Virus record (IMG/VR): IMGVR_UViG_3300024517_000021
Span: 1-54,779 of that record
DNA length: 54,779 nt
DNA from: a virus
Taxonomy: Duplodnaviria > Caudoviricetes
Strand: one strand, 5' to 3'
The translations under genes and the position numbers were made by a program. Shown here one piece after another: positions 24,277 through 45,403 of this stretch (the stretch's first letter is position 1; every line of letters begins with the position of its first letter). Under the pieces are notes generated by a model. That model had not been told where the DNA came from and did not search any database. It saw nothing but the letters and a program-made list of their open reading frames with translations.

Positions 24277-24492
24277 TTGATCATCGATCAGTTGGCACAT
24301 TTTGGATTCGCGTTCTTGGTATCTGGGCTAGGAACAGATACTGGATTGGAGGGTCTCTATGTTGGTTTTGCGCTGGGCGTTGTCAGAGAGCATGCACAGA
24401 TGCAGGCTTCCGGTGATCAGACAATCGGTAAGAATCGAGTAATCGATGTACTCATGTGGTCATTGGGCGGATGCTTAGGAGGTATGCTTTGA
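24277..24492 (+). CDS. Small membrane protein (lysis cassette)
   Basis: TTG directly after TAA; hydrophobic segments; DQLAH...REH motif. Confidence 0.55.
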   Translation: MIIDQLAHFGFAFLVSGLGTDTGLEGLYVGFALGVVREHAQMQASGDQTIGKNRVIDVLMWSLGGCLGGML

Positions 24493-26451: not shown

Positions 26452-26698
26452 CCACCTGGGTGGGAAGCTCCTCCTCCTTAAGCTCGATGGTAATGAACGT
26501 GTAGGGGTTGCCTTTCTTGGATGTTCGCTCCCAAGCGGCGCACCTCACCTTGAGTTCATCACCGGGTGCTTTCTTCAACGCCTCGACCAGATCCTTGAGG
26601 GATTGTCTGCTGAATTCCCCGGTGCCCGTCTTCACCGGGTGATTGGGCCCGGCTTGATACTTGTTGGGATACAGCCACAGTTTGGGTTTATTGTCCAT
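26432..26698 (-). CDS. Putative single-stranded DNA-binding protein
   Basis: P..TG, AAW...SK.G.PY and acidic C-terminal DDDIPF tail; adjacent to annealase. Confidence 0.65.
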   Translation of the reverse strand: MDNKPKLWLYPNKYQAGPNHPVKTGTGEFSRQSLKDLVEALKKAPGDELKVRCAAWERTSKKGNPYTFITIELKEEELPTQVDDDIPF

Positions 26699-27374
26699 CG
26701 GTTTCCTCCTGTCGTAGGACTTCTTTGCGTGCCGTGAAGACTCCGAGAATTTCCCGGTAAGTCGCAGGCTCGCTTCTCTCTAGCTTCTTGAGTTCTTCCA
26801 GATTCTCTCGCCACCAATCTCGCAACTGGGAAGTGTTCTTCTTGTCTTCCGCGAATGCTCGATAAGCGTTGACCACTCCATCCACAACGTCCTCGGACTT
26901 GCCGTTTGGCTTTTCCTTGGTCTCAGTGGTTGGCTGGCTCGATGCGGCAGGGAGATCCTCGCCAGCATAGAGGTAGTGACCAAGGCCGAAGAGCGCGATG
27001 CACTTCGTCAGGCAGCGCATCTTTGCATTCGAGATTGCCAGACTGTCGGGGTTTTGGATTGCCTTGTTTCGGTGATCCATTACGGGAAGCCACATGGTTC
27101 GTGCGACGGGCTCTTCACCTTCGGTGTTAAGGTCGATGAAGATCGTGCATTCCACGGATGCAGTCCCGTCTTTTCCGATATGGGCGGGGGATCCATCCCA
27201 GTCTTTGAACTCAAATTGAGATTCTGGGTAGTAGTCCATGAGTGTGCCCCATGCCCATGCCCAGCTTAGGTAACTCAGGTTCCCTTTCTTCTCGACGTGA
27301 TCGGAAACATCCACCTTGGACAACTGTTCCCAGATCAGTTTCGCTGCGGTCTCTTTCGTATCGTGATCTCTCAT
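26688..27374 (-). CDS. Sak-like (DUF1071 / Rad52-like) ssDNA annealing protein
   Basis: EKKGNLSYLSWAWAW, MWLPVMD.RN.AI, RCL.K.IALFGLG.YLYAGEDLP; start re-called to ATG 27374 (AGGAGG SD). Confidence 0.88.
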   Translation of the reverse strand: MRDHDTKETAAKLIWEQLSKVDVSDHVEKKGNLSYLSWAWAWGTLMDYYPESQFEFKDWDGSPAHIGKDGTASVECTIFIDLNTEGEEPVARTMWLPVMDHRNKAIQNPDSLAISNAKMRCLTKCIALFGLGHYLYAGEDLPAASSQPTTETKEKPNGKSEDVVDGVVNAYRAFAEDKKNTSQLRDWWRENLEELKKLERSEPATYREILGVFTARKEVLRQEETDGQ

Positions 27375-28231
27375 TTGTTCCTCCTGTTTTTCTGTTCGCA
27401 AAACTGCGCGACCTCGCAGTACCGGTCGCACCTCAAGTACTCGGCTTCAGTCTCCACAATAGTGGCAGGTTTTCCCAACTCTAGAGAGAACATCTCTGCG
27501 TCTGTCATGTTGGAGAAGACGCGGGTAGCCCTTGTCTTTGGAGTACCCTTCTGGGTGAGTTCGTAGACCTTCACCTTCCCGTCTCGCTTCCACATCTCCT
27601 CATCGGTGCATTCGGACTGTGGCAAATTATGACAAGCAACTCTTCCCATGATGTAGTCGAGACATTCGGTCGGTCTCCACAAGGGAAGTGCGATTTTTAC
27701 AACAGGGTGTTGTGGGTAGTTCGTATAGTGGGTGCGTGCAGCCGACCAATCTCGGATGATGGCAACGACCTCGATCCCGCTTATGTCGAAGTGGTTAGCT
27801 CTGGCAATTGCAGCGTAAAGATTGAGCTGGTTGATCCACTCCCTCTTCCCTTCTGGGTTGTAGCGAAGGGTCGCTGCGGAGGTGGTCTTGTAATCGGTCA
27901 GTGTGCGAGTGCCATTCTTGTGCAGGGTTTGCAGATCAATCTGGCCGCCGATGAGCTTGCCGCCGAATTCTGCATAGAGACGCTCTTCCACGATTGTGTC
28001 AGGCGCTTCGGCAGTTTCGAGAATTGCGTGGACAGCAGTGCCGAGAATTGAGAAGATGCGATCTGCAACATCCTCTTCAAGTTCTTCGCTATACTGCTCT
28101 TTTAGCCGGAAGATTTGGGGGCTATCGATCAGCGAGGTGACGCTGATCTCGGCTCCTCCCCTCGAATACTTGTTCGCTTCTTCAAACATTACGAAGGGCT
28201 CGGGAAGTCCATGTCGGTTGGTGAGTTTCAA
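27371..28231 (-). CDS. PD-(D/E)XK (Cas4-like) exonuclease
   Basis: GTAVH..LE, GQIDL, DYKTT, QLN.Y, C-terminal RC..YC....C cluster. Confidence 0.85.
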   Translation of the reverse strand: MKLTNRHGLPEPFVMFEEANKYSRGGAEISVTSLIDSPQIFRLKEQYSEELEEDVADRIFSILGTAVHAILETAEAPDTIVEERLYAEFGGKLIGGQIDLQTLHKNGTRTLTDYKTTSAATLRYNPEGKREWINQLNLYAAIARANHFDISGIEVVAIIRDWSAARTHYTNYPQHPVVKIALPLWRPTECLDYIMGRVACHNLPQSECTDEEMWKRDGKVKVYELTQKGTPKTRATRVFSNMTDAEMFSLELGKPATIVETEAEYLRCDRYCEVAQFCEQKNRRNK

Positions 28232-28262: not shown

Positions 28263-28694
28263 ATGACAGAAACGATTGCAAGTGAGGGATGGGATTTCGA
28301 CGCGACGATCTTGGGAGAGCCAGCGAGTGCGAAGAATCAGAGGCGGATTGTTTCGATTGGTGGCAAGCCACGTTTGATCAAGTCGGCAAAGGCGCTTGCT
28401 TACTGTAAGACTTTCGAGGCTCAATGTCCCAAAATTGATCTCATCGAGGAGGATTGCATCATTCGTCTAGATGTCTGGTATGCGAGTCGTAGGCCAGATC
28501 TGGCGGCTATGGATTTGGTGATGGACTTGTTGCAGGGACACGTCTATTCCAATGATCGACAAGTGAAGGGGACAATGTCACTATGGAATTTGGATCGCGT
28601 AAACCCTCGGATCCGGGTGAGAGTTTCGAGGGTCTGCGAAAGCTCAGTCGGCATGTCCTCGTTCAAGCTGTCAGAGATCTGGCCAGGAATCTGA
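28263..28694 (+). CDS. rusA: Holliday junction resolvase, RusA-like
   Basis: GEPAS.KN.R, RRPDL....MD.LQG..Y.ND.QV, NPR..V.V. Confidence 0.8.
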   Translation: MTETIASEGWDFDATILGEPASAKNQRRIVSIGGKPRLIKSAKALAYCKTFEAQCPKIDLIEEDCIIRLDVWYASRRPDLAAMDLVMDLLQGHVYSNDRQVKGTMSLWNLDRVNPRIRVRVSRVCESSVGMSSFKLSEIWPGI

Positions 28695-31479: not shown

Positions 31480-31505
31480 CACAGGAGGACACATAATGTC
31501 CTCTA

Positions 31506-31745
31506 TTAGAATACCATCGGTCCATATTCTGTCGAGTCGATGTCGAATTCTTCACATGGAGGCGGGAGACCCTCATAATTCCCAAGGTCTGCCCCAGTGA
31601 AATGCTCCATGGATTCCCAGTTGGGGAAGTAGAGAAGAGCCGGGGCAATGCCCCCAGCTATACACCCACCATCTTGCATCATGAATATCCATGGAGGACC
31701 GGGTAGATCTTCGTTCTCCGCTGACCAAGTGAGAGCGATTGCCAT
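31506..31745 (-). CDS. Hypothetical protein
   Basis: ORF in leftward operon; start re-called to MAIALTW. Confidence 0.45.
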   Translation of the reverse strand: MAIALTWSAENEDLPGPPWIFMMQDGGCIAGGIAPALLYFPNWESMEHFTGADLGNYEGLPPPCEEFDIDSTEYGPMVF

Positions 31746-31770
31746 CTTGGCTCGACCCTTCCGATGCACG

Positions 31771-31941
31771 TCAAACATTGGGTCCACGCTCTCTCTTGAT
31801 GACAGAGTTCACTTGTCTCTCGATCCACTCTGGATCCTCCGCTCCGAGTCTGCGGAGTTCTTCCGCAACATCTCGCATCGCCTCCTCTTGGCTCGTTGCT
31901 TCGCAAGCAATCTGCCGAAGGTGGAGGTCGATGTCTGACAT
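31771..31941 (-). CDS. Small hypothetical protein (56 aa, not in ORF track)
   Basis: Manual translation MSDIDLHLRQIACEATSQEEAMRDVAEELRRLG...; tight packing. Confidence 0.55.
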   Translation of the reverse strand: MSDIDLHLRQIACEATSQEEAMRDVAEELRRLGAEDPEWIERQVNSVIKRERGPNV

Positions 31942-31946
31942 GACGC

Positions 31947-32090
31947 TCACTTCTTTCCCTTGAGATGTTTCCTGAGTATTGTGCAGATCAGGTTGCTCAA
32001 GCTTCGTTCGCTTCGCTCGGCTTCTTTTCGCAGATCATCTTTGAGCGTGTCCCCCTTGGGTACGCTGATCACGATCTGATTCCACTCCAT
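31947..32090 (-). CDS. Small ribbon-helix-helix (Arc-like) DNA-binding protein (47 aa, not in ORF track)
   Basis: MEWNQIVISVPKGDTLKDDLRKEAERSERSLSNLICTILRKHL matches the beta-strand + L...A....RS.S..I..IL RHH pattern. Confidence 0.6.
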   Translation of the reverse strand: MEWNQIVISVPKGDTLKDDLRKEAERSERSLSNLICTILRKHLKGKK

Positions 32091-32092
32091 TG

Positions 32093-32236
32093 CTACTTTC
32101 CTTTCTGGTCGCAGAGAATGCATTGCTCTCTCGCTACCTCTCCATCTGAATCAAGTGCGACCCAGACACGTCCACTACCATCACACATCGGGCACTCTTC
32201 TGTCTTCGCGGCTTCCATGGATTTCACCTCTTCCAC
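32093..32236 (-). CDS. Small DnaJ-type Zn-finger protein (47 aa, not in ORF track)
   Basis: GGAGG SD + GTG; CPMCDGSG...CILCDQKG. Confidence 0.55.
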   Translation of the reverse strand: MEEVKSMEAAKTEECPMCDGSGRVWVALDSDGEVAREQCILCDQKGK

Positions 32237-32344
32237 CGTCTTGTTCCTCCTACTTTTCCGCCACTCTGGTGGTGGAGTCCTTCTTCATGCTGTGACCCAC
32301 GGATCCTAAATCCGCATGACTTGCATTTGGGTTTCCCCTTGTGC

Positions 32345-32512
32345 TCATTCTTTTCCGAAGAGGATTTCCGTTGCTTCTCCAAGTGACCTCCTTGCAAATG
32401 CTGCCTTTTCTCTAGTTTTCATGCTCATAAAGGAATTGGTTGCAATCTCATCGAGAGTGTGGATTGCGGAGATGATCGCTGCCGTGATGAAGTCCTTCTC
32501 CTGTTCGCTCAC
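32345..32512 (-). CDS. Small hypothetical protein (55 aa, not in ORF track)
   Basis: GTGA overlap with upstream stop; VSEQEKDFITAAIISAIHTLDEIA... Confidence 0.5.
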   Translation of the reverse strand: MSEQEKDFITAAIISAIHTLDEIATNSFMSMKTREKAAFARRSLGEATEILFGKE

Positions 32513-32721
32513 AGTATTTCTTTTTCCCTGAGTGCTTCCAGCAGGATTGATTTCAGATAGGGACCAACTTGAATCCCAAGCAGGTCTGCCTCTTCTCTCA
32601 CGGCATGATAGGCAGCCACCGGCATCCGCAGCACCACCTGATGATGATTTCCGATAGGCTTATTGCCTCGTTTGCGATGCAATTCAGCGCCCCGTATGAC
32701 AGTTTTCTTTTTGTTCGGCAT
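32509..32721 (-). CDS. Putative RHH-type DNA-binding protein
   Basis: GAGG SD; QVVLRMP....AVREEA...G......LKSIL. Confidence 0.55.
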   Translation of the reverse strand: MPNKKKTVIRGAELHRKRGNKPIGNHHQVVLRMPVAAYHAVREEADLLGIQVGPYLKSILLEALREKEIL

Positions 32722-33055
32722 ATTTCCTCTTTAAATTACTTCGTGAATGATTGCTTCGATTGTGAAAAATGCGAGCACCAAGGTGGAGAGAGAGATGATT
32801 GTCCCAAGCACGACAATGATCAGCTTACTTATCATGTTCAATGAATTCCTCTCGGAATGCTTCCAAAAAAGTGTGATCTTGTCCTAGATCCCCAATATTA
32901 ATCTCCCCTCGTCCGTACTTCTGGACAGCTTCGGCGAGAAGATCTGCTGCCTTTAGTATTTTTACCATCTCTTCCATTTTTACCATCTCTTTGTACACGG
33001 GGTTTACTCCAGTTTAAGTGTGTTCTTCTCTACCAGCAGAAGACCCGAGAGATCT

Positions 33056-33403
33056 CTAAAACTTGCCCTCACGTCTCGAAAGAATCTGATTGATGAATTC
33101 GATTATCTGGACTTGAAGCACGGTCTTAGTCTCCTTCCATTCCTTCGAGTAAATCTTCGAGTAAATTCCGTGCGGACACCAACGATGAATCATCTTGTCG
33201 AGATCAGCGAGTTCCGTTTCGTCCATCTGCCCGTCCCTCTTCACCGATTCTCGCGCCAGCCGATAGGCTTCGCTCGCATTCGTATCACCCTCTCGGTTAA
33301 CGAAGAGTCCGTAAAGCTTATCCGCCTTCTCCACCACCTCTCGCAGCGCGGCGTTCTCCTCACGGTATGCCTGGATGCTTGTGTCCTTGACTTGCGGTCT
33401 CAT
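33056..33403 (-). CDS. Hypothetical protein (cassette array member)
   Basis: ATG supplied by junction motif copy at 33401-33417. Confidence 0.7.
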   Translation of the reverse strand: MRPQVKDTSIQAYREENAALREVVEKADKLYGLFVNREGDTNASEAYRLARESVKRDGQMDETELADLDKMIHRWCPHGIYSKIYSKEWKETKTVLQVQIIEFINQILSRREGKF

Positions 33404-33649
33404 CTACTTGTCCTCCTCAAGCATTCTGACAGATTCTTCCTTCGCTCTAATCAACTCGATCCCTTTGTGGATGGAGTCGATTAGAGTGAAGGCAGCCACC
33501 TTGTCTTGGATGTGAATGGAGTGGTGATGGTCGTAGTCCTTGGGATCGATCCTGAGAGTGATGCTCTGCTTCTCGCTATCGCCCGGATAAATATCTCGGA
33601 CCTCGATATCTGTTGCTCTTCCTACATGGAAATTTACAGTCGTAATCAT
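33404..33649 (-). CDS. Hypothetical protein (cassette array member)
   Basis: AGGAGGACGACATG start; ends EEDK-TAG inside junction motif. Confidence 0.7.
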   Translation of the reverse strand: MITTVNFHVGRATDIEVRDIYPGDSEKQSITLRIDPKDYDHHHSIHIQDKVAAFTLIDSIHKGIELIRAKEESVRMLEEDK

Positions 33650-33835
33650 GTCGTCCTCCTGTTAGGCCAGTATTGCACACTGGCATTGAAAAGCAACAGC
33701 AACACCTCGTTACTGTTATCGTGGTGGGCGATGGGCCAATAACCCTTCTTGGCCCACGGCCCATTCTCATTCAGCGGGGAAAAACCCAGTGAATTCAATG
33801 AGTAGGGAGAAGCCCCTCAAAAATGGGAGCAACTA

Positions 33836-33907
33836 CCCGCAATATTTTTTCAGTCAAATAGCCAAGATTCTTACAACGATTGACTACAAAATATTTTTCC
33901 CTAGTCT
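33836..33907. promoter_or_regulatory. Back-to-back promoter/operator-like motifs TTGACT-N-AAATATT
   Basis: TTGACTGAAAAAATATT on - strand (33857-33841) and TTGACTACAAAATATTTTTCCCTAGTCT on + strand (33880-33907). Confidence 0.5.
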
Positions 33908-34296
33908 TCGATCAGCCGACGGTCGAACTCCTCTTCTAGTTCTTCCTGCGTGCAGTCGCCTTGCCTCTCTCCAACCTGCTTCTCTCTGAGGTTTTGCACG
34001 AATCGGTCGGCGTCTATCTCGTCCCGGGACCATCGCTTCTCTCTCCAGACAGAGAGTCGGTCCTGCTTCTCTCTTCGGAATGCTTCCGCATCGTGAGGTC
34101 GAGTCTTGGCTGACCCGCAGGTTCGGCATCGGCTCAACTCCACCGTTTCTTGAATCACAGTCACAACCACAAGCCAGCCATCATCTCTCTCTCCCTCAAC
34201 CCTGTACTCTCCAATCGTGTCATCCCTTCCCGTGCCTCGGGTGTTCCTATCCCACCTAGGTCTGGTGCTTGTAAATGAGAAGTCCCGATACTTCAT
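33901..34296 (-). CDS. Hypothetical protein with CxxC
   Basis: GGGGGAG SD, ATGA overlap, 131 aa. Confidence 0.6.
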   Translation of the reverse strand: MKYRDFSFTSTRPRWDRNTRGTGRDDTIGEYRVEGERDDGWLVVVTVIQETVELSRCRTCGSAKTRPHDAEAFRREKQDRLSVWREKRWSRDEIDADRFVQNLREKQVGERQGDCTQEELEEEFDRRLIED

Positions 34297-34862
34297 GTCT
34301 CCCCCCTTCTCTTCTTTGAGGTTTGAATTTTCTCATTGAGTTCTCTCGTGAAGTATATCAGTGCAGCGTCAACACTTCTGCTTGAACGTGAGTCGAAGAG
34401 TGCGTGAGGAATTGTTACATCGGACCATGCGCCGCAATTCCTCGCAAACTGAATCGCTCGTGGATTTGACACAGGGATCAGTCCAATCAGAACATCCCAC
34501 ACAAATTCCCCTTCATCGTTAGTCGTGTTGATGATTTTGTCCAGGGCATATTGCATGATGGGGACTGACCCCCTCCCCCAGAACTTACTGAAGCAAGTCC
34601 AATGCATCTGGACACTCTTCCCCTGGAAGTTATTCAGCCAGCAAGCGATGGCTGGTTCATTGTCTGCCATCACAAGGTAGAGGATGTTGTGGCCAGAAGT
34701 GACTGAGAAGAGGAACTCCTCCCTGGAGTTGACGGTTCCATCCTGAAAGATCGACGCAGCGACTCCGTCTGACACCATCCGGTCGTAGAGATCCATGACA
34801 TGCGAGTCCTTGAGAGTGGGAACACCGTCAATTTTTGTATAGGGAATCAGGTTGACTCTCAA
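34293..34862 (-). CDS. GNAT-family N-acetyltransferase-like protein (cassette array member)
   Basis: WLN......H...F..FWG.G, LIG.IP..N.RA..F....G; TTG start in junction motif. Confidence 0.65.
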   Translation of the reverse strand: MRVNLIPYTKIDGVPTLKDSHVMDLYDRMVSDGVAASIFQDGTVNSREEFLFSVTSGHNILYLVMADNEPAIACWLNNFQGKSVQMHWTCFSKFWGRGSVPIMQYALDKIINTTNDEGEFVWDVLIGLIPVSNPRAIQFARNCGAWSDVTIPHALFDSRSSRSVDAALIYFTRELNEKIQTSKKRRGET

Positions 34863-34875
34863 TCTACTTGTCCTC

Positions 34876-35094
34876 CTAAGTGCATTCGTATCTGTCTTTT
34901 CGATATTGATTTATCTCATGCTTCTTATCATTCCAAGTCCGACAGACTGCGCACCAGAGGTCAAGATGAACGAGATCTTCTCTAGCCCAGTCAGCAGCGC
35001 ATCGTTGTCGGCAAAAGGGTGGCGTGTGATTCAACTTCAAAATCCTCTTGCATTTGATGCATCTCGGATTGGATAACTCCACGCACTTCCCCAT
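34876..35094 (-). CDS. Small Cys-rich Zn-binding protein (cassette array member)
   Basis: CIKC, CRQRC, CAVC; flanked by two exact junction motifs. Confidence 0.65.
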   Translation of the reverse strand: MGKCVELSNPRCIKCKRILKLNHTPPFCRQRCAADWAREDLVHLDLWCAVCRTWNDKKHEINQYRKDRYECT

Positions 35095-35421
35095 CTACTT
35101 GTCCTCCTGTGTGATGTTTGTGATGGTGCCCAGGTTGGCGGCTCCCCGCATCAAAAAACCCCAGGGACCGTGAGCGCTTAGAAGAATGTCAATCCTTCCA
35201 CCCTTCGGTCCTTTTAGTTCGACTGTGAACGTGCCAACCTCTACAACGGTCAAGGAATAAGGCTTTTCCCAGTCGCTGAGGCGGTCTGTTTTGATGGTGA
35301 CATGCTCGCCGGGTTCAAGGTCAGGGAGTCCATCTTTAAAATAAGTGCGTCCGTCTCCGCTCACTCGCAACCCCCACCTGAGAAGTTTCCCCCACCTGAT
35401 GAGGTCATTCGGTTTGACCAT
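35095..35421 (-). CDS. Hypothetical protein (cassette array member)
   Basis: 108 aa, ends QEDK-TAG in junction motif. Confidence 0.65.
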   Translation of the reverse strand: MVKPNDLIRWGKLLRWGLRVSGDGRTYFKDGLPDLEPGEHVTIKTDRLSDWEKPYSLTVVEVGTFTVELKGPKGGRIDILLSAHGPWGFLMRGAANLGTITNITQEDK

Positions 35422-35430
35422 GTCATCTAC

Positions 35431-35631
35431 TTATCCTCCTAGGATATCTTTGTAGCGGCCCAGCATTCCCCATATCTTCGCCACGGTTTCATCGTCCATC
35501 TCGTGATACACATCAGTGAGTCCCTCACTTTTAACAATGATAGAGAACTCGTGACCATTGAACCCGTTGTCTAGCATGTCCTCCACTCTGTTCTCCAATG
35601 CCCGCTGCGCTTCGTTTAGCTTCACGCTCAT
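35431..35631 (-). CDS. Hypothetical protein (cassette array member)
   Basis: 66 aa, flanked by variant junction motifs. Confidence 0.65.
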   Translation of the reverse strand: MSVKLNEAQRALENRVEDMLDNGFNGHEFSIIVKSEGLTDVYHEMDDETVAKIWGMLGRYKDILGG

Positions 35632-35922
35632 CTACTTGTTTCCAGCCTTCGTCCGTTGCATCCCAAACTTCGCCCCCTGATTGTCCATCATCAATTTTAT
35701 GCACAGCTCCTTTTCCACTTCGGCGTAGTGGACATACTCAAAAAAGTATTCAACTCGTACATACTCATCCCGGCACCACTTCACGCGATAGAGATAGAAC
35801 AGGAGTCCACGAATCCAGTTGGGGCCGAAGTCCTTGCCTGCAATTCCGTCCTGATCCTCCACGTTCCAGCCGGGGCCGATGCGAAGTAGGTAAAGAACTC
35901 GGTAAAGAATATTTTTAATCAT
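35632..35922 (-). CDS. Hypothetical protein (cassette array member)
   Basis: 96 aa, aromatic-rich, ends GNK-TAG in variant motif. Confidence 0.6.
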   Translation of the reverse strand: MIKNILYRVLYLLRIGPGWNVEDQDGIAGKDFGPNWIRGLLFYLYRVKWCRDEYVRVEYFFEYVHYAEVEKELCIKLMMDNQGAKFGMQRTKAGNK

Positions 35923-36263
35923 CTACTTGTCCTCCTTGATTTGGAATAAATGAATGCAAGAAACACAATCGATACAGTCAACATGATGGCAATCGAAGGT
36001 TCCGGCACGTTAACTGGAGATCCCCAATGGGATATCTCTCCTCCTTCTCCGATAGATCTAGCTCTCACCAGTGCAACAGCGCCGGGTAGTTCTAGTTCTA
36101 CTTCAAAGCAGTCGTTGCAGCTTTGGACTGTATTGGTCTGGCCTGCTGGCTCCCAAATTTTAGGACGATGCGCTGGTCCTCCGGGTAGATACTCAAATTC
36201 CCAACCCGTAATGTTTTCGTTGTCAGGCTGATACCAGTGGATAGTGTGTCTATGATCTGTCAC
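35919..36263 (-). CDS. PEP-CTERM sorting-domain protein (cassette array member)
   Basis: C-term VPEP + SIAIMLTVSIVFLAFIY transmembrane helix + basic tail SKSRRTSR. Confidence 0.75.
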   Translation of the reverse strand: MTDHRHTIHWYQPDNENITGWEFEYLPGGPAHRPKIWEPAGQTNTVQSCNDCFEVELELPGAVALVRARSIGEGGEISHWGSPVNVPEPSIAIMLTVSIVFLAFIYSKSRRTSR

Positions 36264-36267
36264 TTAT

Positions 36268-36528
36268 CTACTTTTCCTCCTCTTCTCGACGCTTGGCAAT
36301 GCACCAAGCGCATACCGTATCGGCCTCGAACTCTACGCAGTTGACGCGACACTCCTCGCACAGTCGGTTCCTTGTACTTCCAACTCTCATCAGCTTGGAG
36401 TCCTTGTCTAGTGCTTCTTGCACTCTTTCCACGTCTCCGGGTCTTCCAATCTTCCTCGCAATGGAATCGTGGCTGAGACCTTTTCTGGCTAGCTTGATGA
36501 TTCTTTCATGGGTGTGATGCTTGCTCAT
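36268..36528 (-). CDS. HTH-like plus Zn-finger small protein (cassette array member)
   Basis: I.KLA.KGLS...IARKIG helix-turn-helix-like; CEEC...CAWC. Confidence 0.6.
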   Translation of the reverse strand: MSKHHTHERIIKLARKGLSHDSIARKIGRPGDVERVQEALDKDSKLMRVGSTRNRLCEECRVNCVEFEADTVCAWCIAKRREEEEK

Positions 36529-36852
36529 CTACTTGTCCTCCTTGAGTGCCAAGGCGTCTTTCGTGAGGTCAGTGAGCAGGAGGGATTTGGCCCTCTGGAT
36601 TTCCCGCCTGGGAACATAGTTAGACTTCGTGTCCGGGATTGGCGTCGATAGCGTGACGATGTCATTAAGCACCTGTGCCATTTCTACGTAGCTTTCGCGC
36701 AGATATTTGACATCTTCGACTACTCCACGCTTCGGTCCAGTCACTTCGCCAACGGCAGCAGCGTGCATCTTCGCAATGAGGTGGCAAGCGTCCTTATGCT
36801 CACCCTTGAGCCACGCCACTTCCGTCTTCAGATATTCAATTTCCTTGTCCAT
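36529..36852 (-). CDS. Hypothetical coiled-coil protein (first cassette array member)
   Basis: AC..IA.MHAAAVGE..GP.RGVVEDV; ends KEDK-TAG. Confidence 0.7.
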   Translation of the reverse strand: MDKEIEYLKTEVAWLKGEHKDACHLIAKMHAAAVGEVTGPKRGVVEDVKYLRESYVEMAQVLNDIVTLSTPIPDTKSNYVPRREIQRAKSLLLTDLTKDALALKEDK

Positions 36853-36876
36853 CTACTTGTCCTCCTGTGTGTGAGA

Positions 36877-36905
36877 GAGGGGAGGGGGGCTATCCCCCTC
36901 CCCTC
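36877..36905. promoter_or_regulatory. Perfect 12-bp GC hairpin upstream of the cassette array
   Basis: GAGGGGAGGGGG-GCTAT-CCCCCTCCCCTC; no clear U-tail. Confidence 0.7.
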
Positions 36906-36909
36906 CGGC

Positions 36910-38220
36910 TCAGATATCGATCTGCACTGCATCCCCAAAGGGAGGCTTGTTCTTCGTCCACCTTCCACCCGTCTCGAAAACTTCCTCCGAAGATGCCCAG
37001 AGGATCGGGTGTCGAGTCGGCTCACCGTAGCTTCGGCATTCGAGGTCGGTGAAGATGATCACCGCATCGGGCCTTGCGTTGGTGTGTCGGAGCCAGTGGA
37101 AGATGGGCTCGTAGTTCGTTCCGCCACCGCACTCCATATCAGTGGGCAACTTTTCCTTCGGTCCCAACTCGATGATCATCTCCTGCTGGATGACATGATT
37201 GAAGGGGACGATGGTGATCTTCTGGATCGTAGTAGCCCCCCGGATCTTCTCCAGATGAGAGAAGAATGCCTGATGCTCAGCCCTTCCAACTGATGAGGAA
37301 ATATCCTCGAAGATCATCAGATGCTGGAGTCCCTCCCGGATCTCGCCCGGCAGGTACTGTCGGTAGGACAGTGCGCGCCGATCCAGTCGAGACCAAGTCC
37401 TCCCGATGGGCTTGCCCACCTTGTGGATCCACTTGGCGAGGTAAGCTGACCAGTCCATCTTGGGTCGGGTGATCCGATCAAGCGCCCGCCTTTCATCGGG
37501 GCTGCCCATCTTCCCTACATCCTTCGCAGCCATCTCTCCCTGAGAAATTGTGTCAGCTAGATCTCGGAGACCTTCCTGCTTCTGGCCTTCGGTGAGTTCC
37601 TTCCCGTCTTCGTCGGTGGCATCCCAAACTTCGCCGGGTGCTTTCTTCGGTGAGGGAGGAGCTGACTCTGGGGGGGCAGGTGCGCCGGGCTTTCCCCCAT
37701 CGATCTCATCTCCCGGCTCATCCCCCGGCCCATCCCCGGACTCCGGGAATGAGCCATTGCCGGGCTCATCACCGGGCTCATCTGGAGAATCGGGGGGCGG
37801 CGGCGGCGGGTCACTTACGATGCGACCGAAGACCTTCTCTTCTGACCAACCCCGGTACTTTTCATCGCAGTACCAGTCACCGGGGATGGGGAAGCCCGCA
37901 TCCTTGAGAAGGAGGTTGATCACATAATCACAGGCAATATTCCAGAGATAGTGGTCACGGTTGCCACGCCGGAACTGATGCCCCAGCGCAACGTGCGCCA
38001 CCTCGTGGAGGATGAGCGTGTGTCGCGTGTACTTGGGGAGGCTCAGGCAATACTCAGGGTTGGCGAAGATCCTGCGACCATCTGTTGCGGCAGTCTCGAC
38101 CGGCCTCCCCCCGTGGCTGGTGCAGACCAGCAGCTCCAGCTTCATGGCGACCAGTGCCCAGAAGGGCTGTTCGTCCAGTGCTTTGATTCGGATTGATTCG
38201 AGTTCAGTTTGGAAGTCCAT
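36910..38220 (-). CDS. DUF2201-like metallopeptidase + vWA domain protein
   Basis: TAATDG, HEVAH (HExxH), WNIACDYVIN, Pro/acidic linker, MIDAS-like DISSS, GGGT, IFTD. Confidence 0.88.
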   Translation of the reverse strand: MDFQTELESIRIKALDEQPFWALVAMKLELLVCTSHGGRPVETAATDGRRIFANPEYCLSLPKYTRHTLILHEVAHVALGHQFRRGNRDHYLWNIACDYVINLLLKDAGFPIPGDWYCDEKYRGWSEEKVFGRIVSDPPPPPPDSPDEPGDEPGNGSFPESGDGPGDEPGDEIDGGKPGAPAPPESAPPSPKKAPGEVWDATDEDGKELTEGQKQEGLRDLADTISQGEMAAKDVGKMGSPDERRALDRITRPKMDWSAYLAKWIHKVGKPIGRTWSRLDRRALSYRQYLPGEIREGLQHLMIFEDISSSVGRAEHQAFFSHLEKIRGATTIQKITIVPFNHVIQQEMIIELGPKEKLPTDMECGGGTNYEPIFHWLRHTNARPDAVIIFTDLECRSYGEPTRHPILWASSEEVFETGGRWTKNKPPFGDAVQIDI

Positions 38221-38271
38221 TGTGTCTCCTGTGTTGAGAAGGAAGGGGGGGCACTCGCCCCCCCCTCTGCA

Positions 38272-39375
38272 TCATCCGATGACTAGATCCTCATTATCCT
38301 TGAGGAACTGGGCGTACTCTGCTGACGCATTGGCGAAGTCCTTGTGAGAGTTCGCTGCCTGCTTGAATCCGAAGACTGCGAACGCCCCGTCCAGTCTGCG
38401 GAGGTACGTGATGACTGCATCCACCCGTTGAGTAGTGAGTGTCTCACCCTTCCTAGCCTGAAGGTCCGCGCAGATGTTGCTGATCACTGCGTAGTTCGCC
38501 GAGAGTGCCCCATCTCCAGAGGGGATATGAGCCGTTTCGGGTGACTCATAAATGTCCTCGACGCTGGCCAGCTCCCCTCCGAGTCGGACATATCCAGAGA
38601 ACTCGATGTATGCAGCTCTCCCGACCAGCCCCTCGCCGTGTCGCCTCATCGTGCCATCGGACAGACCCTGCCAGAGTAGGCCGGACAATTTGTGCCAGCT
38701 TCGGAGGCTCGGCCTAGCAAGTTCCTTCGAGTTGTAATCAGAGCAGTGGATGAAGTTCCTCTGCCCTTCGGGCTCCGACTTCACCCATCGCAGGAATCCA
38801 GTAATGAGGGGGTGGATCTTCCCGTCTGCCCATTCCAGCCAGCGAGGAAAGATCTCGGTGATGATATCCTCATGAGTGATCTCGATGATGCTGAATCGAT
38901 CCAGCAGTGACCAAGTGATCGGGTTGCTCCCGCAGTTGGCTTCGGGCGGGTTCGTTGCGGCGACGAACCAGACATGATCGGGGATCTTGTGACCTTCCAG
39001 CTCACGATCTTGGATCAGGCTCTGGATGGCAGTCTGCTGATCGTCGAGACTGTTGCCGATCTCATCGAAGAAGACGCAGACCCCGTCATAATTCTCTGCG
39101 CCGGGAACGTCCCCAAGCAGCGTCCGTTTAATCATCGTTACCAGTTCCCCCTTCTCAAAGTCGGGGACGTTGATTCCTCCAACATCGATGGAAGGCGTGC
39201 GGCCAAGGATGATCGTGATCAGCAGGTTATTGATCGGCTCGCAGAAGCCGCGAACCTGGGCAGTCTTGGAGATGCCCCGGTCCCCGATGAAGAGACAAGG
39301 CGTCCCCTCCCCGTAGATCCCGTTCGTCTGGGTCTTCCGAGAGGAGGCGAGCAGTTCGTTAAAATCGAGTGACAT
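38272..39375 (-). CDS. MoxR-like AAA+ ATPase
   Basis: Walker A-like GDRGISKT, Walker B VFFDE, AATN, L.DRF, RSW; adjacent to vWA gene. Confidence 0.85.
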   Translation of the reverse strand: MSLDFNELLASSRKTQTNGIYGEGTPCLFIGDRGISKTAQVRGFCEPINNLLITIILGRTPSIDVGGINVPDFEKGELVTMIKRTLLGDVPGAENYDGVCVFFDEIGNSLDDQQTAIQSLIQDRELEGHKIPDHVWFVAATNPPEANCGSNPITWSLLDRFSIIEITHEDIITEIFPRWLEWADGKIHPLITGFLRWVKSEPEGQRNFIHCSDYNSKELARPSLRSWHKLSGLLWQGLSDGTMRRHGEGLVGRAAYIEFSGYVRLGGELASVEDIYESPETAHIPSGDGALSANYAVISNICADLQARKGETLTTQRVDAVITYLRRLDGAFAVFGFKQAANSHKDFANASAEYAQFLKDNEDLVIG

Positions 39376-39412
39376 ATGTTCTCCTGTAAGTTGTGGGCGC
39401 TATGCCCCCTGG

Positions 39413-40297
39413 CTAGCTGCGGTTCCCGAAGTTCCCAATCCGGGAGAGCAGGTCCTTGGCATCTCGGTGGACTTTCTCCCGGAGGTGAGAGTCTTCCCGG
39501 AGATCCTGAGCATCCACGGTGCAGATCTCCCGGATCATCTTCTGCCGGACCTCCTCGACCACCGGATCATCGAGCAGGTTGAAGTCGCTAAGCAGGTCTG
39601 CGATCTCCCTGGCATTGGTGATGATGGAGTCTCGGAAGGATCCCTCCCTACCCCCATCATATTTGTTGACCTCCACCAGCCGCTTGAGGACTCCCTCGAC
39701 ACGCTCGGTGACGTGAGCCACCGCTTTGCGGACCTTCGAGGCGGACTGCTCTTCCAGTGCCTGACGCACCCGATCCGCATGATCTGCGGAGAATCCAGCT
39801 CGGATATCCCGGCTGGCATCGGGGACTACGTTGATCTCGTAAGAGAACACGCACTTGGAGATGAACTCATCTCTCGTCGGGTAGTCCGAAGCGTCGAAGA
39901 GTTCGCCCATCCCTCCATCGGCTGCGCCCATCGCATCGCGTCGGATGATTCCCTGGAGTCGGTCGGCAGCCTCGATGGCGAGCCTCTCGCACTCACGTCC
40001 ATGCATATCGAGGACGCTGAGCAGCTCCGGCAGTCGGGAGTTCAGGCAAAGACGATCCGCGCCTTCGGTCCAGGGGAGGGTGACTGCCACCCATTTCTTC
40101 CGGCCCGTTGCCCGGTTCGCCGAGAGTTCCGCGAGTGCCTCCTTGAAAGTGTGCGTCACCACTTTGGTGCGCCGCTTGTCGGAGTCCTTCTGGTCAGCCA
40201 GCTCCCTGCTGGCATTTTTCTTGGTGCGGATTCCACCCGGCATTTTCGTGTGGACATTCACCAGAGTTGCACGATCCGCGAGTCCCTTACTAGGCAT
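39413..40297 (-). CDS. DUF3150-like helical protein of the AAA/vWA module
   Basis: TLPW, F..SDYP....., FRDS, FNL.DDP, LRED..LR; start re-called to ATG 40297 (AGGAGG SD). Confidence 0.7.
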   Translation of the reverse strand: MPSKGLADRATLVNVHTKMPGGIRTKKNASRELADQKDSDKRRTKVVTHTFKEALAELSANRATGRKKWVAVTLPWTEGADRLCLNSRLPELLSVLDMHGRECERLAIEAADRLQGIIRRDAMGAADGGMGELFDASDYPTRDEFISKCVFSYEINVVPDASRDIRAGFSADHADRVRQALEEQSASKVRKAVAHVTERVEGVLKRLVEVNKYDGGREGSFRDSIITNAREIADLLSDFNLLDDPVVEEVRQKMIREICTVDAQDLREDSHLREKVHRDAKDLLSRIGNFGNRS

Positions 40298-40590
40298 GTT
40301 GCCTCCTGTTTTGTCTCGCTGTAACACGGCGAGACGGTGGGTGTAGTTGTAGGGAAAAATATTTACTGGTCAGGTGAGCATCTAGGGGATCAGCGATCCA
40401 TCACCCCTTCCCTTGTGCTTACGCTTCCGCGTGTAGCCCTTGGCACCCTTCTTGGTGCCATGCTTCCCGCCCCGAGGTAGCCGCACCTTGCGACTCTCCC
40501 GGCGCAGGAACTTCGCCAGATCGATTTCGATTTTCATCGTGTAACCCTTCTGCGAGAGAGGGGGGGGGCACCCCCCTCCCCTGCTCCTAC

Positions 40591-41016
40591 CTAGTTCCTG
40601 GCATACTCCCGATCGCTGGGTGCCGATTCATGAGGGGAGATGCTATCGCGACCTGCGAGAACATCGGCGGCATAAGCCACCCCCTCAGCGGGGATCGAGA
40701 AGAGCGCGGATACCGCGCAAGTCCCTCCACTGATGAGTGTCACCGGGAGTCGGAAGATCAGGCCCACGATGGTATTTCCAACGCTGGGCGTGCGATCCCG
40801 CCGATCTCCCACTGCCCATCGGGCCAGCTTGCAACCTGCCCAGCTCACATTGTCGAGCGAGTCGGCAGTTGCGTGTGAAGTGATGGCAACTCCATTTGCC
40901 ACCTCCTGCGATCCAGCGATGACTACATCGCCGATCACCTCACCAGCCGAGGGCTGGTATCCATCGGCACTCGCCACCGTAGCGAGCACCATCGAGAGAA
41001 GAGTGAGTCGGTACAT
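40591..41016 (-). CDS. Exported/membrane hypothetical protein
   Basis: AGGAGG SD; signal peptide MYRLTLLSMVLATVASA; internal hydrophobic segment. Confidence 0.65.
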   Translation of the reverse strand: MYRLTLLSMVLATVASADGYQPSAGEVIGDVVIAGSQEVANGVAITSHATADSLDNVSWAGCKLARWAVGDRRDRTPSVGNTIVGLIFRLPVTLISGGTCAVSALFSIPAEGVAYAADVLAGRDSISPHESAPSDREYARN

Positions 41017-41088
41017 GTTTCCTCCTGTTTTGGGTTTCCACTGAAGCCCTCGGAAGGGCTTTTCGGCGGGTCACCAGCCCGCTGCTCG

Positions 41089-41319
41089 TCAGAGTGGATC
41101 GGATGCTCTCGCCAGCTCGGCAGCTTCCCGCCAAACCGTCCCCAGTTTCCCGGCCATGGCTTCGACCCCCCGTTGGACTGCCTGTCCAGCGTCCGGGTCG
41201 GAGAGGTCTGCCCGGTCGAACTTCTCGAAAGTCGCCTCCAGCTCCACCGAGAGATCGTGGAGCGCATCGTGTACCGCGATGCTGGCGTCGGAGAGTTCGT
41301 CGAGTTGGGTTTGGTTCAT
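41089..41319 (-). CDS. Small acidic helical hypothetical protein
   Basis: GGAGG SD; followed by twin hairpins at 41044-41082. Confidence 0.6.
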   Translation of the reverse strand: MNQTQLDELSDASIAVHDALHDLSVELEATFEKFDRADLSDPDAGQAVQRGVEAMAGKLGTVWREAAELARASDPL

Positions 41320-42061
41320 CGGATTTCATCCTCCAAGTGTTGACTATCCAAGAATCGGATAGCCTCGTCTTCGTCAGTTGCCATCTTCCATTGCAGTCCG
41401 GTAGCCAGCCGGTGGTGATGGAATCCCTCCATCGGGGTGCCGCGCCCTGGGCATGTGATTTGAGTGGCTTGAGTGTCTCCTGGCAGCTCGCCCCGAAGGG
41501 GTCATGGCCCGCCATGCGGTGTTTCGTTTCGCGCCTACTTGATGGCTCTCCCCGCCCAGCGCGGCGGGGGTCATGGCCCACTGAGGAAGGGTCGCAGCGT
41601 GTCACCATTCAGGGTTTGCATCTCGCCCCGACTGCCACTGCCATCACCGCCGCTCGCCTTCCCTGTCACCATCGCCCTCCGAGGAGTAAGCGACCTTGCC
41701 CGCATCTCCCGGGTTCATAATCCCCGAGAGGTAGAGGGAGCGTGACATCCCCGGCGAGCGCCGGGTTTGCTTCCACCGATTCCACCATCTTCGCGAAGTC
41801 GCCGATCCGGTCGAGTTCGCCGCGAGTCGCCTCGCGTTGGGTCTGCCATGTGAGAGGTCTGGAGGAGGGTCGGTGCGTGCCAACGGCATTGGGGGCCGAG
41901 TGAGAGATCGAGCCCCGTGCCTTCGCACCTTCCCTGCCAGCGTGAGCGGGCAGTCGCTGTCTCGGTGTGTCCTCCGCGGCGCGATCCGGGTATCGCCGCG
42001 TGGCCGAGTCCGTTCTGTTTTCCCCCTCTCTCCCCGAGAACCTCGCCCCGGTGACACAGTC

Positions 42062-42089
42062 AGTATCGGTCATAGGAGACAGAAGTCAA
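42062..42089 (-). promoter_or_regulatory. Candidate sigma70-like leftward early promoter
   Basis: TTGACT-N16-GATACT in an AT-richer patch at the strand switch. Confidence 0.4.
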
Positions 42090-42176
42090 TAGAAATCGTT
42101 ACAACAGGTAATAATAATTCGTAGGTATCGACCCGCGTCGGGGGCTGAGCGAAACTCAGCGTAAGAGGTAGGGGCG

Positions 42177-42755
42177 ATGGCAGGGGTCGAAGCCAGGGTC
42201 CGGGGAGGCAAGTCCATGGTGGAGCAGGGGAAGGCGAGGTTGACCGAGAGGCAGAGGGCTTTCGCGGATAAGGTGATTGGGGGAAGCCCAACACTGGCGC
42301 AGGCTTACCTCGAAACCTACGGCGACAAGGATGGGACCAGAAAGGCGACGAAGGGGCAGAAGAATGAGGCTTCGAGGCTCTGGAGGAGCCCTTCTGTGGT
42401 CTCCTACGTGGAGAGCATCCGCTCCAGGGTCGAATCTGCCCAGTCCAGGCGAGCCCTCGGTCAGCGCCAACGGATCACCGAGGCCCTCTGGGTGGAGGCG
42501 CAACATGCGGGCAAGGCCAGCGACCGCATCGCAGCGCTCAGATTGTTGGGGCAGCAGAGTGACGTGGGAATGTTCAGCGAGAAGCTGGAGGTCTCGCACC
42601 GTGAAAGTGAGATCTCCGACGCCGAGATGGTTTCTGAGATCGAGAACACGTTGCGGGAAGCACTGGCAGATCGTGAGACCAACACCATCGACGTAACGCC
42701 AGCACACGCTGAGCAGGTGGAAGCAACGAGCCAGCAGCAGGCTGAATCCACCTAG
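42177..42755 (+). CDS. terS: Terminase small subunit
   Basis: LTERQRAF......AY...Y, ASRL...P.V..Y, DRIAAL.LLG....GMF; upstream of TerL. Confidence 0.82.
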   Translation: MAGVEARVRGGKSMVEQGKARLTERQRAFADKVIGGSPTLAQAYLETYGDKDGTRKATKGQKNEASRLWRSPSVVSYVESIRSRVESAQSRRALGQRQRITEALWVEAQHAGKASDRIAALRLLGQQSDVGMFSEKLEVSHRESEISDAEMVSEIENTLREALADRETNTIDVTPAHAEQVEATSQQQAEST

Positions 42756-42924
42756 CATTTGTCATGTCGGGCCTCAGCCCATGGCGGCTAGCACTGGTCA
42801 ACCTGGGCTAACACCAGCAATGTACGTGCAGGGCTAACGCAACAAGTGTGATGCTACCCCCCGGGGATGCACCACCCCCCACCCCCCCTTACGCGCAGGC
42901 CCGGGGTCGTCACCCTTACACACT

Positions 42925-42999
42925 ATTTCACACGTACAATTCTGATTTCACACGTACGATTCTGGATTTCACACATACAATTCTGATTTCACACATACA
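42925..42999 (+). repeat. Tandem 20-21 bp repeat ATTTCACAC(G/A)TAC(A/G)ATTCTG, about 3.7 copies
   Basis: Units at 42925, 42945, 42966, 42986; followed by AT-rich tract near 43059-43083. Confidence 0.9.
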
Positions 43000-43378
43000 C
43001 TAAAATTTTCTTCATTTCGCGAAAGCGAAACTTTCCCGGTGAAACTGCCCCAAAGCCGAAATTATTTTTATTTTTTTTTAATTCCAAACCATGGTGTAAG
43101 TATGGGTCCCCTATAGGTTTTTAGGAGACTGCCCCCAGGGGTACACCGTTTAGGGACAAATTTATAGCGTGTCAAGGTACCGAATGTGCTATGGATACCT
43201 ACGGTTCTGACCCAATGGTCGCGTAGCTACTAGGTCGATCCGGTAATAACTACACAGGGTAGTAACTTGTAGTTTTCCAGTAGCGACTACACAAGGGCAG
43301 GCTAGAGCCTGCCCTCATTAGCCAAGAGCGATCTGGATTAAGGGGTGTTACCGGTTAGAAAGAGGCCGGAGGTACGCC

Positions 43379-44866: not shown

Positions 44867-44869
44867 TCT

Positions 44870-45403
44870 ATGCCGGGAGAAGAAAAACTCGATCCGACTT
44901 TGGGTGGCATGTTGTACTACCACCCGGATACACCGGTAGAAATTTCGGATCAGTTCTCCGCTCCAGAGGGGCAGCAGTATCTGAGGAACATGCAGCAGTT
45001 CCTCGGTCTATTAAACCGGGCGACTCCAGAAGGTTATGTGTGGAGGAATAATTCTGCTTATCGAGATTGGGGAAAGGCTCATCCCGTAAAGCCTTCTCAT
45101 GATTTCGTAGTCAGGAGATCCGACTCGATAGATTCCGATTCCCCTCCGAAGGAGCTTTCTGATTTGCTCCCGGGAATATATGAGAGCGCAATGCGCTTGG
45201 CCCAGCACTCAGGAATGAGGGCACAGGGAACTGCCCATGGAAGCGGCCCTCACTTGCATACCAATGCGGGTCCTACGGCAGGATCGAGATTGGATGATGA
45301 GGAGTTGGAAGCTTACCTAGAAAATATACGCTCTCGATTTTCCCAAGGGAAGTACCGTAGCGGTGGTCTGATCCGTGATGGTTACGGAAGAAACCTTTTT
45401 TGA
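44870..45403 (+). CDS. Hypothetical protein, possible M15-like Zn peptidase fold
   Basis: SAYR....H.....HDF...GPHLH; C-terminal YRSGGLI motif. Confidence 0.5.
   Translation: MPGEEKLDPTLGGMLYYHPDTPVEISDQFSAPEGQQYLRNMQQFLGLLNRATPEGYVWRNNSAYRDWGKAHPVKPSHDFVVRRSDSIDSDSPPKELSDLLPGIYESAMRLAQHSGMRAQGTAHGSGPHLHTNAGPTAGSRLDDEELEAYLENIRSRFSQGKYRSGGLIRDGYGRNLF

Follow-up and report, generated by a model that had tools for sequence, protein, structure and literature searches.

A 17-nucleotide stop-start joint at the boundaries of small accessory genes in a marine tailed phage, and its possible part in gene exchange

Why should a phage join a series of small, unrelated genes one after another by the same short sequence? 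This question is raised by IMGVR_UViG_3300024517_000021, one entire IMG/VR virus record, linear and 93% complete according to CheckV, which was analysed over its full length of 54,779 nt and is called the window in the following. It belongs to a tailed phage, and the runs holding its sequence are seawater or marine metagenomes. Directly downstream of a gene for a VWA / putative metallopeptidase protein, the minus strand carries an array of 11 small open reading frames (ORFs) of 66–189 aa (positions 33056–36852), whose boundaries are marked by a repeated element of 17 nt, AGGAGGACAAGTAGATG. In its consensus form this element consists of a Shine-Dalgarno sequence (SD), AGGAGG, a spacer of 8 nt that ends in the stop codon of the upstream gene, and then the start codon of the next gene. 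An earlier interpretation, here called the sequence-only reading, had seen in it a plug-in joint at which accessory genes are gained, lost or reordered while their translation signals are kept. Alternatively, the element might be a favourite ribosome site, or the target of a binding factor. All gene models of the window used below are ORF heuristics.

Scanning the whole window with the 17-mer gave eight copies with at most two mismatches, all on the minus strand within 33401–36866 (starts at 33401, 34861, 35092, 35424, 35920, 36265, 36526 and 36850). The sole match on the plus strand, at 47267, has three mismatches and is unrelated. Against these eight copies stands a chance level of 0.15 on average in shuffled sequences (largest number 2), and none of 100 shuffles reached nine. 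If only 16 nt are considered, six copies are exact and two have one mismatch, while the reversed control pattern was not found at all. A ninth copy, CTGGAAACAAGTAGATG at 35629–35645, is degenerate: it is identical at 12 of 17 positions, including all of the final 11. No further copy was found elsewhere in the 54,779-nt record. The pattern scans thus bear out the nine minus-strand copies, six of them exact over 16 nt, which the sequence-only reading had reported here and had not seen in full elsewhere. It had also placed them correctly: counted in the direction of the genes, copies 1 to 8 stand at eight consecutive gene boundaries, and copy 9 follows two genes further on.

The copies differ in how they are used by the genes at either side. 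Copy 1 (36850–36866) is exact; it comes after the stop codon of the VWA gene and a GC hairpin, hence after non-coding sequence, and its ATG opens ORF 36529–36852. This ORF ends in KEDK on the TAG of copy 2 (36526–36542, exact), the ATG of which opens ORF 36268–36528. Copy 3 (36265–36281, AGGAGGAAAAGTAGATA) has two mismatches, and the next gene (35919–36263) starts from a GTG 4 nt on. In copy 4 (35920–35936, exact) the upstream ORF ends in RRTSR on a TGA overlapping the ATG. The degenerate copy 5 has a weak SD, and its ATG opens ORF 35431–35631. Copy 6 (35424–35440) carries a C-to-T variant by which the stop of the upstream ORF, ending in GG, becomes TAA. Copies 7 (35092–35108) and 9 (33401–33417) are both exact, with upstream ORFs ending in QEDK and EEDK, and their ATGs open ORFs 34876–35094 and 33056–33403, respectively. 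In copy 8 (34861–34877) ATT replaces ATG, and the gene 34293–34862 starts from a TTG 1 nt on. Taken together, the upstream ORF ends in EDK, EEK or GNK on the TAG of the element in five copies, on the overlapping TGA and on the variant-made TAA in one copy each, and in one more on a TAG that overlaps the first two bases of the element. The upstream stop therefore lies inside the element in seven of nine copies, and the element's own ATG is used in six of nine. The statement that the element usually holds the next start is thus right for these six, whereas the remaining three genes start 1, 4 or 5 nt past it (TTG at 34862, GTG at 36263, ATG at 35421). The last of these belongs to copy 6, where the ATG of the element opens a frame of 21 codons only and a 108-aa gene starts 5 nt later in another frame (35419–35440); this arrangement may be an imprecise old junction or a frameshift.

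Since upstream ORFs end in three different frames, before the element or not at all near it, and since the element's own ATG serves in six of nine cases, conservation must act at the level of the nucleic acid, as had been claimed from the sequence. It also extends well past the SD. When 21 copies from six contigs were aligned (one degenerate row stood two bases out of register), exactly 17 positions carried 1.0–2.0 bits and the flanks at most 0.5 bits, so that the element has sharp limits at 17 nt. The spacer bases ACAAG and the choice of TAG as stop are nearly invariant among these 21 copies. As a continuation of the pairing with the 16S rRNA 3' end, ACAAG after AGGAGG presumably does not extend the complement of the anti-SD. 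The layout of the element, with a consensus SD, a workable spacer and a stop directly next to a start, makes it almost certain that it serves for ribosome binding and for coupling. It agrees with that of translationally coupled stop-start junctions, where an SD lies 4–12 nt ahead of the start and within the end of the upstream ORF.

It is, however, not the general ribosome site of this phage but is restricted to accessory genes. The core genes, comprising those for the VWA protein, an ATPase, a 294-aa protein, the annealing protein Sak and an exonuclease, are preceded by ACAGGAG(A/G)ACA with a spacer of 4–6 nt and not by the element. At small minus-strand genes outside 33.4–36.9 kb no element was found either. 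Among 70 same-strand junctions of the window 22 are tight (gap of -8 to +3), and only five of these carry the element, in contrast to 17 that do without it, including all 14 on the plus strand. The possibility that the motif is equally common at the starts of core genes, which would have spoken for a mere preferred ribosome site, is thereby contradicted. A second uniform ribosome-site context was observed at the core genes of the clade (those for a protein of about 300 aa, the ATPase and the VWA protein): an A/C-rich leader followed by ACACAGGAG(A/G)ACA and a spacer of 4–6 nt, which is kept between phages at about 40% protein identity (window 36910–40297, minus strand; blocks of loci L048, L053, L068 and L069).

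Are the same joints found in other phages? Single-protein searches of IMG/VR (with the VWA protein, the ATPase and the 107-aa and 189-aa cargo ORFs) found no close relatives. GenBank phages matched by the VWA protein, N4-like coliphages and Pseudomonas phages among them, were all less than 60% identical, with the best one listed at about 32%, and the DNA of the array had no match in GenBank phages. An alignment of VWA homologues, however, gave 80 metagenome loci as relatives. The form of the joint present in the window (type A) occurs as an exact 16-mer at the starts of small genes in L055 (VWA 40% identical), L077 (51%, partial) and L097 (44%), and with one or two mismatches in L048 (46%) and L052 (44%). 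In IMG/VR the exact 17-mer is found in 39 stretches with one match each and in no other large array; by a relaxed pattern second copies appear only in L014, which is the same as genome G001, and in L034. A whole-record search of five IMG/VR contigs of comparable size detected an array only in G001, which has four consecutive joints at 44550–45320 with cargo unrelated to that of the window; its large terminase is 48%, its portal 55% and its major head protein 72% identical to the window's. Altogether, no fewer than five metagenome contigs and one genome from IMG/VR contain the 16-mer as well, at protein identities of 36–72%. Further, two exact joints and one diverged type-A joint stand at small-gene starts in L034:6811–7156 (minus strand), a much larger viral contig of 131,711 nt from IMG/VR.

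A further form (type B), AGGAGGA-Y-R-AGTG-ATG, occurs in other relatives. It is shorter by one base, and its TGA stop overlaps the ATG. Within one genome it is often identical over 15–27 nt (L059, L062, L067, L068). Using a relaxed pattern on 759,761 nt, we counted 20 type-A and 39 type-B joints on the strand of the VWA gene, that is 59, and a single one on the other strand. The cargo behind the joints is mostly unrelated: 52 ORFs of at least 30 aa gave only nine blastp pairs, of which five were from near-identical contigs, two from within L059 and two from different phages. One and the same cargo family is preceded by a type-B joint in L050 and by a type-A joint in L055, hence the joint follows the phage and not the cassette; a homologue of the window's ORF 35919–36263 is found behind an ordinary ribosome site in L087. 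In a quick tree of VWA proteins the full-length type-A carriers, which are the window, L048 and L055, were scattered, and the branches starred in it force at least two changes, but three rows prove little. Other repeated motifs were observed in some of the loci: the palindrome GGATAAATTTATCC at 13 sites of L073, TAATGTCCAATGGACA at seven sites of L082, CCCTGGAGGCATAGAAA in five copies before starts in L069:279–2447, and GGAGAACTAGCATGA in four copies in L080:758–1585, the latter being another SD-stop-start joint.

Whether genes have moved at the element can be judged from a strain that is about 95% identical to the window and differs at about 3.5–6% of the aligned bases. It is represented by Logan contigs of a seawater run from another study (X10). 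One of them, with a length of 2,233 nt and a depth of 19, covers the window from 36281 to 35930 and resumes from 35433 to 35091. The 496 nt in between (35434–35929, minus strand), holding ORFs 35431–35631 and 35632–35922, are absent, and both ends of the missing segment lie inside copies, its upstream end in copy 4 and its downstream end in copy 6. At the joint 35433>35930 seven bases, AGGAGGA, are shared, and the joint carries the T variant of copy 6. Homology of the same contig stops on one side at base 1 of copy 3 (36281), past which 1,325 bases are unmatched, and on the other at the edge of copy 7 (35091), past which 213 bases are unmatched. A second contig of this run matches 33401–34861 and has 254 unlike bases before 33401, so that the homology breaks at the last base of copy 9. 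There is also a loose end at 33419, and copies 8, 7 and 1 have short contigs terminating at their edges. Two further joints, 33421>36850 (side of 22) and 33112>35919 (side of 30, depth 2), were discarded as too short for trust, and the parts without coverage in X10 (36573–36839, 35505–35771 and 32835–33368) were given no weight by themselves. Among the contig joints listed, none led back from one copy to another; the sole row that goes back, 39500>36870, lies at the end of the stretch.

Contigs of three other studies (X4, X7, X8) bridge copies without any difference, so that the arrangement is real and not an assembly artefact. Contigs of the same three also have loose ends at 36829/36864, sharing about 36 nt, namely most of copy 1 and the first bases of the next gene, followed by unlike, AT-richer sequence on both sides. 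These may come from another phage with the same joint and gene start.

A second kind of footprint connects distant phages. The stretch 36536–36866 (minus strand) is 88.8% identical at the DNA level over 331 nt to L055:4453–4783, and 80% at the protein level. It extends from position 1 of copy 1 to position 7 of copy 2. This cassette is the first gene after the VWA gene in the window and the third in L055, whereas the VWA genes themselves, with their proteins 40% identical, gave no match in the same blastn search. Between L055 and L097 the 3' end of the VWA gene is 84% identical, and this homology stops inside the first element of L055, just past AGGAGGA. The natural indel and the exchanged cassette show that genes were removed, added or swapped at copies of the element. 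This is in line with the plug-in idea, as a two-gene indel and a cassette of 89% identity are both bounded by copies. Relatives with the same gene order, or with breakpoints away from the motif, would have told against that idea; instead the order differs and these breakpoints fall in the motif.

We consider it fairly probable that the element acts as a standard joint for translation and at the same time provides homology for recombination. A clade of marine tailed phages would string small accessory genes together by the 17-nt joint or its variant shorter by one base. Being identical direct repeats placed precisely where one gene meets the next, the copies would act as short stretches of homology, and recombination at them, within a genome and between co-infecting phages, would delete, insert or exchange whole genes, each retaining its ribosome site, stop and start. 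The copies are reused with an exactness beyond what translation needs, since 17 junctions are coupled without the element and three copies were kept despite a moved start codon. As function alone does not explain this exact reuse, the copies look homologous and spread by copying rather than by convergence. The fixed ACAAG might then reflect common descent with recombinational homogenisation, or a binding factor. Candidate agents would be enzymes of the phage itself, the RecA of the host, or replication slippage. The window does encode a recombination toolkit: a Sak single-strand annealing protein (26688–27374, minus strand, E 9.2e-45), a PD-(D/E)XK exonuclease whose gene (27371–28231, minus strand) overlaps the start of the Sak gene, and a RusA-type Holliday-junction resolvase (28263–28694, plus strand, E 6.6e-05, 24.0 bits against a cut-off of 22.8). 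Rad52-like annealases recombine short and diverged phage sequences, as stated in a previous study (PMC3945230).

Several points weigh against a causal role in recombination. The strain evidence comes from contigs of a single run and not from reads, and the event at 35433>35930 may be read as an insertion or as a deletion. Whole-gene indels end at gene boundaries under any mechanism once selection has acted; should function require the element at every boundary, break points will fall in it even though it does not cause them. Moreover, a length of 17 nt, or even of 7 nt, is very small for homologous recombination to be efficient. As the crossover fell in or just after AGGAGGA in all three cases that can be resolved, a strong ribosome site of any kind might be enough. 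When homology blocks of at least 150 nt and at least 80% identity were compared among L048–L097 and the window, with joints in at least one locus of a pair, only three of 16 internal block ends fell in a joint; the other 13 lay 473–5643 nt from the nearest one, in array-free type-B parts. The same statistic over all loci was abandoned, as it was swamped by a joint-less soil clade. For Sak no match was found in the type-A genome G001 over the 55,000 of 58,515 nt that were searched. Finally, the identity of 16 out of 16 bases across diverged phages suggests purifying selection on the sequence, for which recombination alone is insufficient, and the joint goes with the phage rather than with the cassette.

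The main rival view takes the element primarily as a binding site for a trans-acting factor with sequence specificity; this factor would define a regulon of accessory genes, with recombination as a by-product. Such a factor could be a translational repressor or activator that binds RNA, an endoribonuclease acting at ribosome sites, or a DNA-binding protein at oriented sites near starts, comparable to the stoperators of mycobacteriophages. Phage T4 has examples of the first two, as RegA binds RNA and covers ribosome site and start codon, and RegB is an endoribonuclease cutting at ribosome sites. A factor would account for ACAAG and the choice of TAG, both nearly invariant in the 21 copies although they are needed neither for SD nor for stop or start. 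It would also account for the conservation of the 16-mer across phages at 36–72% protein identity, for the strict orientation of the joints (59 against one), and for a joint type that tracks the phage instead of the cargo. The different, internally uniform variants in relatives are what co-evolution of site and factor predicts, and the recombination footprints are compatible with it. However, no candidate factor was identified, and since the type-A carriers were scattered on the VWA tree, with three rows only, a co-inherited factor is not obvious. No RNA fold common to the copies was found (four junctions folded no better than shuffles, z from -0.25 to +1.40), nor a match in Rfam at E up to 0.1. 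In three copies the ATG has drifted, and in one the SD, without loss of the ORFs. For a pure DNA operator the single-base register with the start codon would be unnecessary. An antisense RNA was considered as well and rejected, the complement of the spacer being absent from the plus strand. On balance we regard a site of this kind as the primary explanation as rather unlikely.

The simplest idea, that the element is only a locally preferred strong ribosome site of coupled genes, to which each junction came independently under selection for efficient re-initiation, is very improbable. It draws on the consensus SD, the workable length of the spacer and the stop abutting the start, on the graded variants in relatives (AGGAGGA-N-R-AGT-(AG/G)-ATG), and on the fact that core genes of the clade, too, have unusually uniform A/C-rich ribosome sites. 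Yet this genome has 22 tight junctions of which 17 lack the element, positions that are synonymous or unconstrained are fixed, and the upstream ORFs either run through it, in one of three frames, or do not cross it. The three copies that were retained after the start codon had moved by 1–5 nt point to common descent rather than to convergence.

That the element serves a dedicated site-specific recombination system (integron-like or with a cassette integrase), or is a promoter of a phage RNA polymerase, is suggested by a repeated, oriented and sharply bounded site at every cassette boundary and by whole-cassette differences between strains, but we see hardly any likelihood in it, because among 50 ORFs scanned with Pfam and/or PHROGs (those below about 120 aa outside the array were not all scanned) there was no tyrosine or serine recombinase nor other recombinase family, which agrees with the initial impression that no integrase is visible, and no RNA polymerase; because no internal symmetry, inverted repeat or attC-like hairpin was found in the element; because sigma-70-like promoter sites (7 in 31500–43500 against 6.2 expected, none at a copy) and terminator-like sites (12 against 10.8) were at background; and because a transcript started from an element that ends at the start codon would be without a ribosome site of its own.

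In the literature library searched, a published description of the element was not found: a search of full texts with its 13-letter core matched only an unrelated study on human periodontal stem cells, and among literature on conserved intergenic SD sequences at phage gene cassettes only a paper on archaeal viruses matched. Two systems of other phages come close, the start-associated sequences (SAS) of Cluster K mycobacteriophages by appearance and the promoter-early stem-loop (PeSL) cassettes of T4-type phages by behaviour. With neither of them does the element share sequence, apart from a GGAG core in the SAS.

The SAS has a 13-bp consensus, GGGATAGGAGCCC, of which matches were counted with up to two mismatches (Pope et al. 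2011, PMC3203893; PMC12699233). It occurs in 11–19 copies per genome, and its function was still unverified in the survey of 2025 (PMC12699233). Like our element it is a short, asymmetric, SD-containing repeat in one orientation, restricted to non-structural genes and placed beside ATG starts, sometimes with the upstream stop inside the repeat; it is kept across subclusters before different gene families and is more conserved than pairing with rRNA explains. Correspondingly, all nine copies in the window are on the minus strand at gene starts within the non-structural block, and the element is conserved before different gene families across related phages. A binding host or phage product is likewise suspected for the SAS (PMC3203893), which favours the idea of a trans-acting factor. 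The consensus differs, however, and the SAS lies 3–7 bp before the start whereas the element itself includes stop and start. About half of the SAS have an additional 17-bp inverted-repeat part (ESAS), which has no counterpart here, and their bearers are temperate actinobacteriophages in contrast to uncultured marine phages. In the available parts of both papers (PMC3203893, PMC12699233) SAS are not reported as end points of indels or exchanges. The stoperators of Cluster A mycobacteriophages are mentioned alongside the SAS in the earlier one (PMC3203893).

With the PeSL cassettes (Arbiol et al. 2010, PMC2839356; Comeau et al. 2014, PMC4122927) the likeness is one of genome dynamics. There, too, repeated regulatory motifs flank small ORFans in variable regions, close relatives differ by repeat-bounded insertions, deletions and replacements of whole genes, and the proposed mechanism is alike, with recombination between the repeats and expression signals that travel with the gene. 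But a PeSL is a transcription signal of about 100 bp, made of a sigma-70-like promoter and a terminator stem-loop, instead of a 17-nt translation signal without either. Excised PeSL mini-circles, with one chimeric repeat each, were physically shown, while the data on the element come from contigs.

Three other comparisons are more remote. Stoperators are asymmetric sites of 13 bp that recur many times in the direction of transcription; they are found close to stop and start codons, where the space between genes is short. They are DNA sites for the repressor of a temperate phage and have no fixed register with ribosome site and start, unlike the element, which is in register. Integron arrays, which the sequence-only reading had named beside the SAS, resemble the array by their unrelated small genes with a repeated boundary site each. 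Integron cassettes need the IntI integrase and folded attC hairpins and bring no translation joint of their own, and neither a recombinase among the 50 scanned ORFs nor an attC-like fold was found. The analogy to the integron fails on structure and on the enzyme. In the modular theory of lambdoid phage evolution, short conserved boundary sequences are said to guide the homologous exchange of modules (Susskind and Botstein 1978; Clark et al. 2001 are the names attached to this view). Such linkers are few and differ from boundary to boundary, whereas here a single sequence stands at up to nine boundaries and is common to distant genomes.

For the cargo itself little can be said. None of the array ORFs received a family assignment at curated thresholds. 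The labels GNAT, PEP-CTERM, Zn-finger and HTH-like given to them from the sequence could not be confirmed, as the Pfam matches (Acetyltransf_3, PEP-CTERM, YacG and DUF2802) have E values of 0.03–0.05, below the curated cut-offs, and PHROGs matched none of ten. As a whole, the interpretation made from the sequence is partly supported.

The tight array is interrupted by an ORF-free gap of about 250 nt (33650–33900, minus strand) with an AT-rich stretch and an 11-pair stem at 33694–33718. This gap may hold a promoter or a terminator, or encode a small RNA. The GC-rich hairpin of 13 base pairs (36870–36905, minus strand; -34.6 kcal/mol, z -2.68) is not part of the element; it separates copy 1 from the stop of the VWA gene. 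A second hairpin of a G-run and a C-run precedes the VWA gene at 38246–38265 (minus strand), and both are followed by CT-rich tracts; a similar C/T-rich tract stands ahead of the first element in L077 (780–811). The two hairpins that bracket the VWA gene may be terminators, processing sites or RNA stabilisers. This gene (36910–38220, minus strand; PF13203 and PF09967) was the anchor for the searches of relatives. The remaining genome is that of a tailed phage with a large terminase (43379–44866) and a portal (46264–48804), a major head protein (51452–52369), SU10-type adaptor proteins and an M15 peptidase, besides a primase/helicase and an AAA ATPase. A Cpn10 (GroES-like) co-chaperonin gene is located between portal and head genes (49069–49446, plus strand; Pfam E 1.2e-10). 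An ORF of 3,513 aa (13277–23818, plus strand) has an N-terminal lytic transglycosylase domain; for its C-terminal part all PHROG matches lack a known function. The ORF probably encodes an internal virion protein that is ejected. Its assignment as an N4-type virion RNA polymerase was dropped, as PHROGs give transglycosylase / internal virion protein and no polymerase family. Three genes with TTG starts, at 24489 (plus), 26375 (minus) and 43379 (plus), the last being the large terminase, have GGAGGTAYGCY directly 5' of the TTG.

What do these results mean for the evolution of such phages? It is an old question whether phages swap genes by rare illegitimate recombination followed by selection, or by homologous exchange at conserved linkers, and clear linkers are scarce. 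New here is a minimal linker that consists of translation signals only, stands at up to nine consecutive boundaries and is common to phages at 36–72% protein identity. Two natural events, an indel of two genes and the exchange of a cassette by distant phages, match its position to the base, and the linker question becomes testable with simple constructs. The joint, being compact and self-contained, may also find a use in polycistronic constructs. Furthermore, the motif can be used at little cost to search marine viromes for accessory genes without a known function, which are probably early ones. The same approach, guided by regulatory sequences, has led to anti-defence genes according to another study (PMC11065993).

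Whether all this amounts to an integrase-free gene-cassette system in lytic marine phages, with a portable 17-nt linker as common currency, is possible but doubtful, and we put it forward tentatively. If true, a small gene with the linker at both ends could be moved by general recombination between distant co-infecting phages and be expressed at once. With only exact copies able to move, the linker would remain uniform. In this case the array would form a shared accessory pool with fast turnover, possibly of genes for host takeover or anti-defence. Such a system would be a real case of the linker-sequence model, long proposed for the modular evolution of phages.

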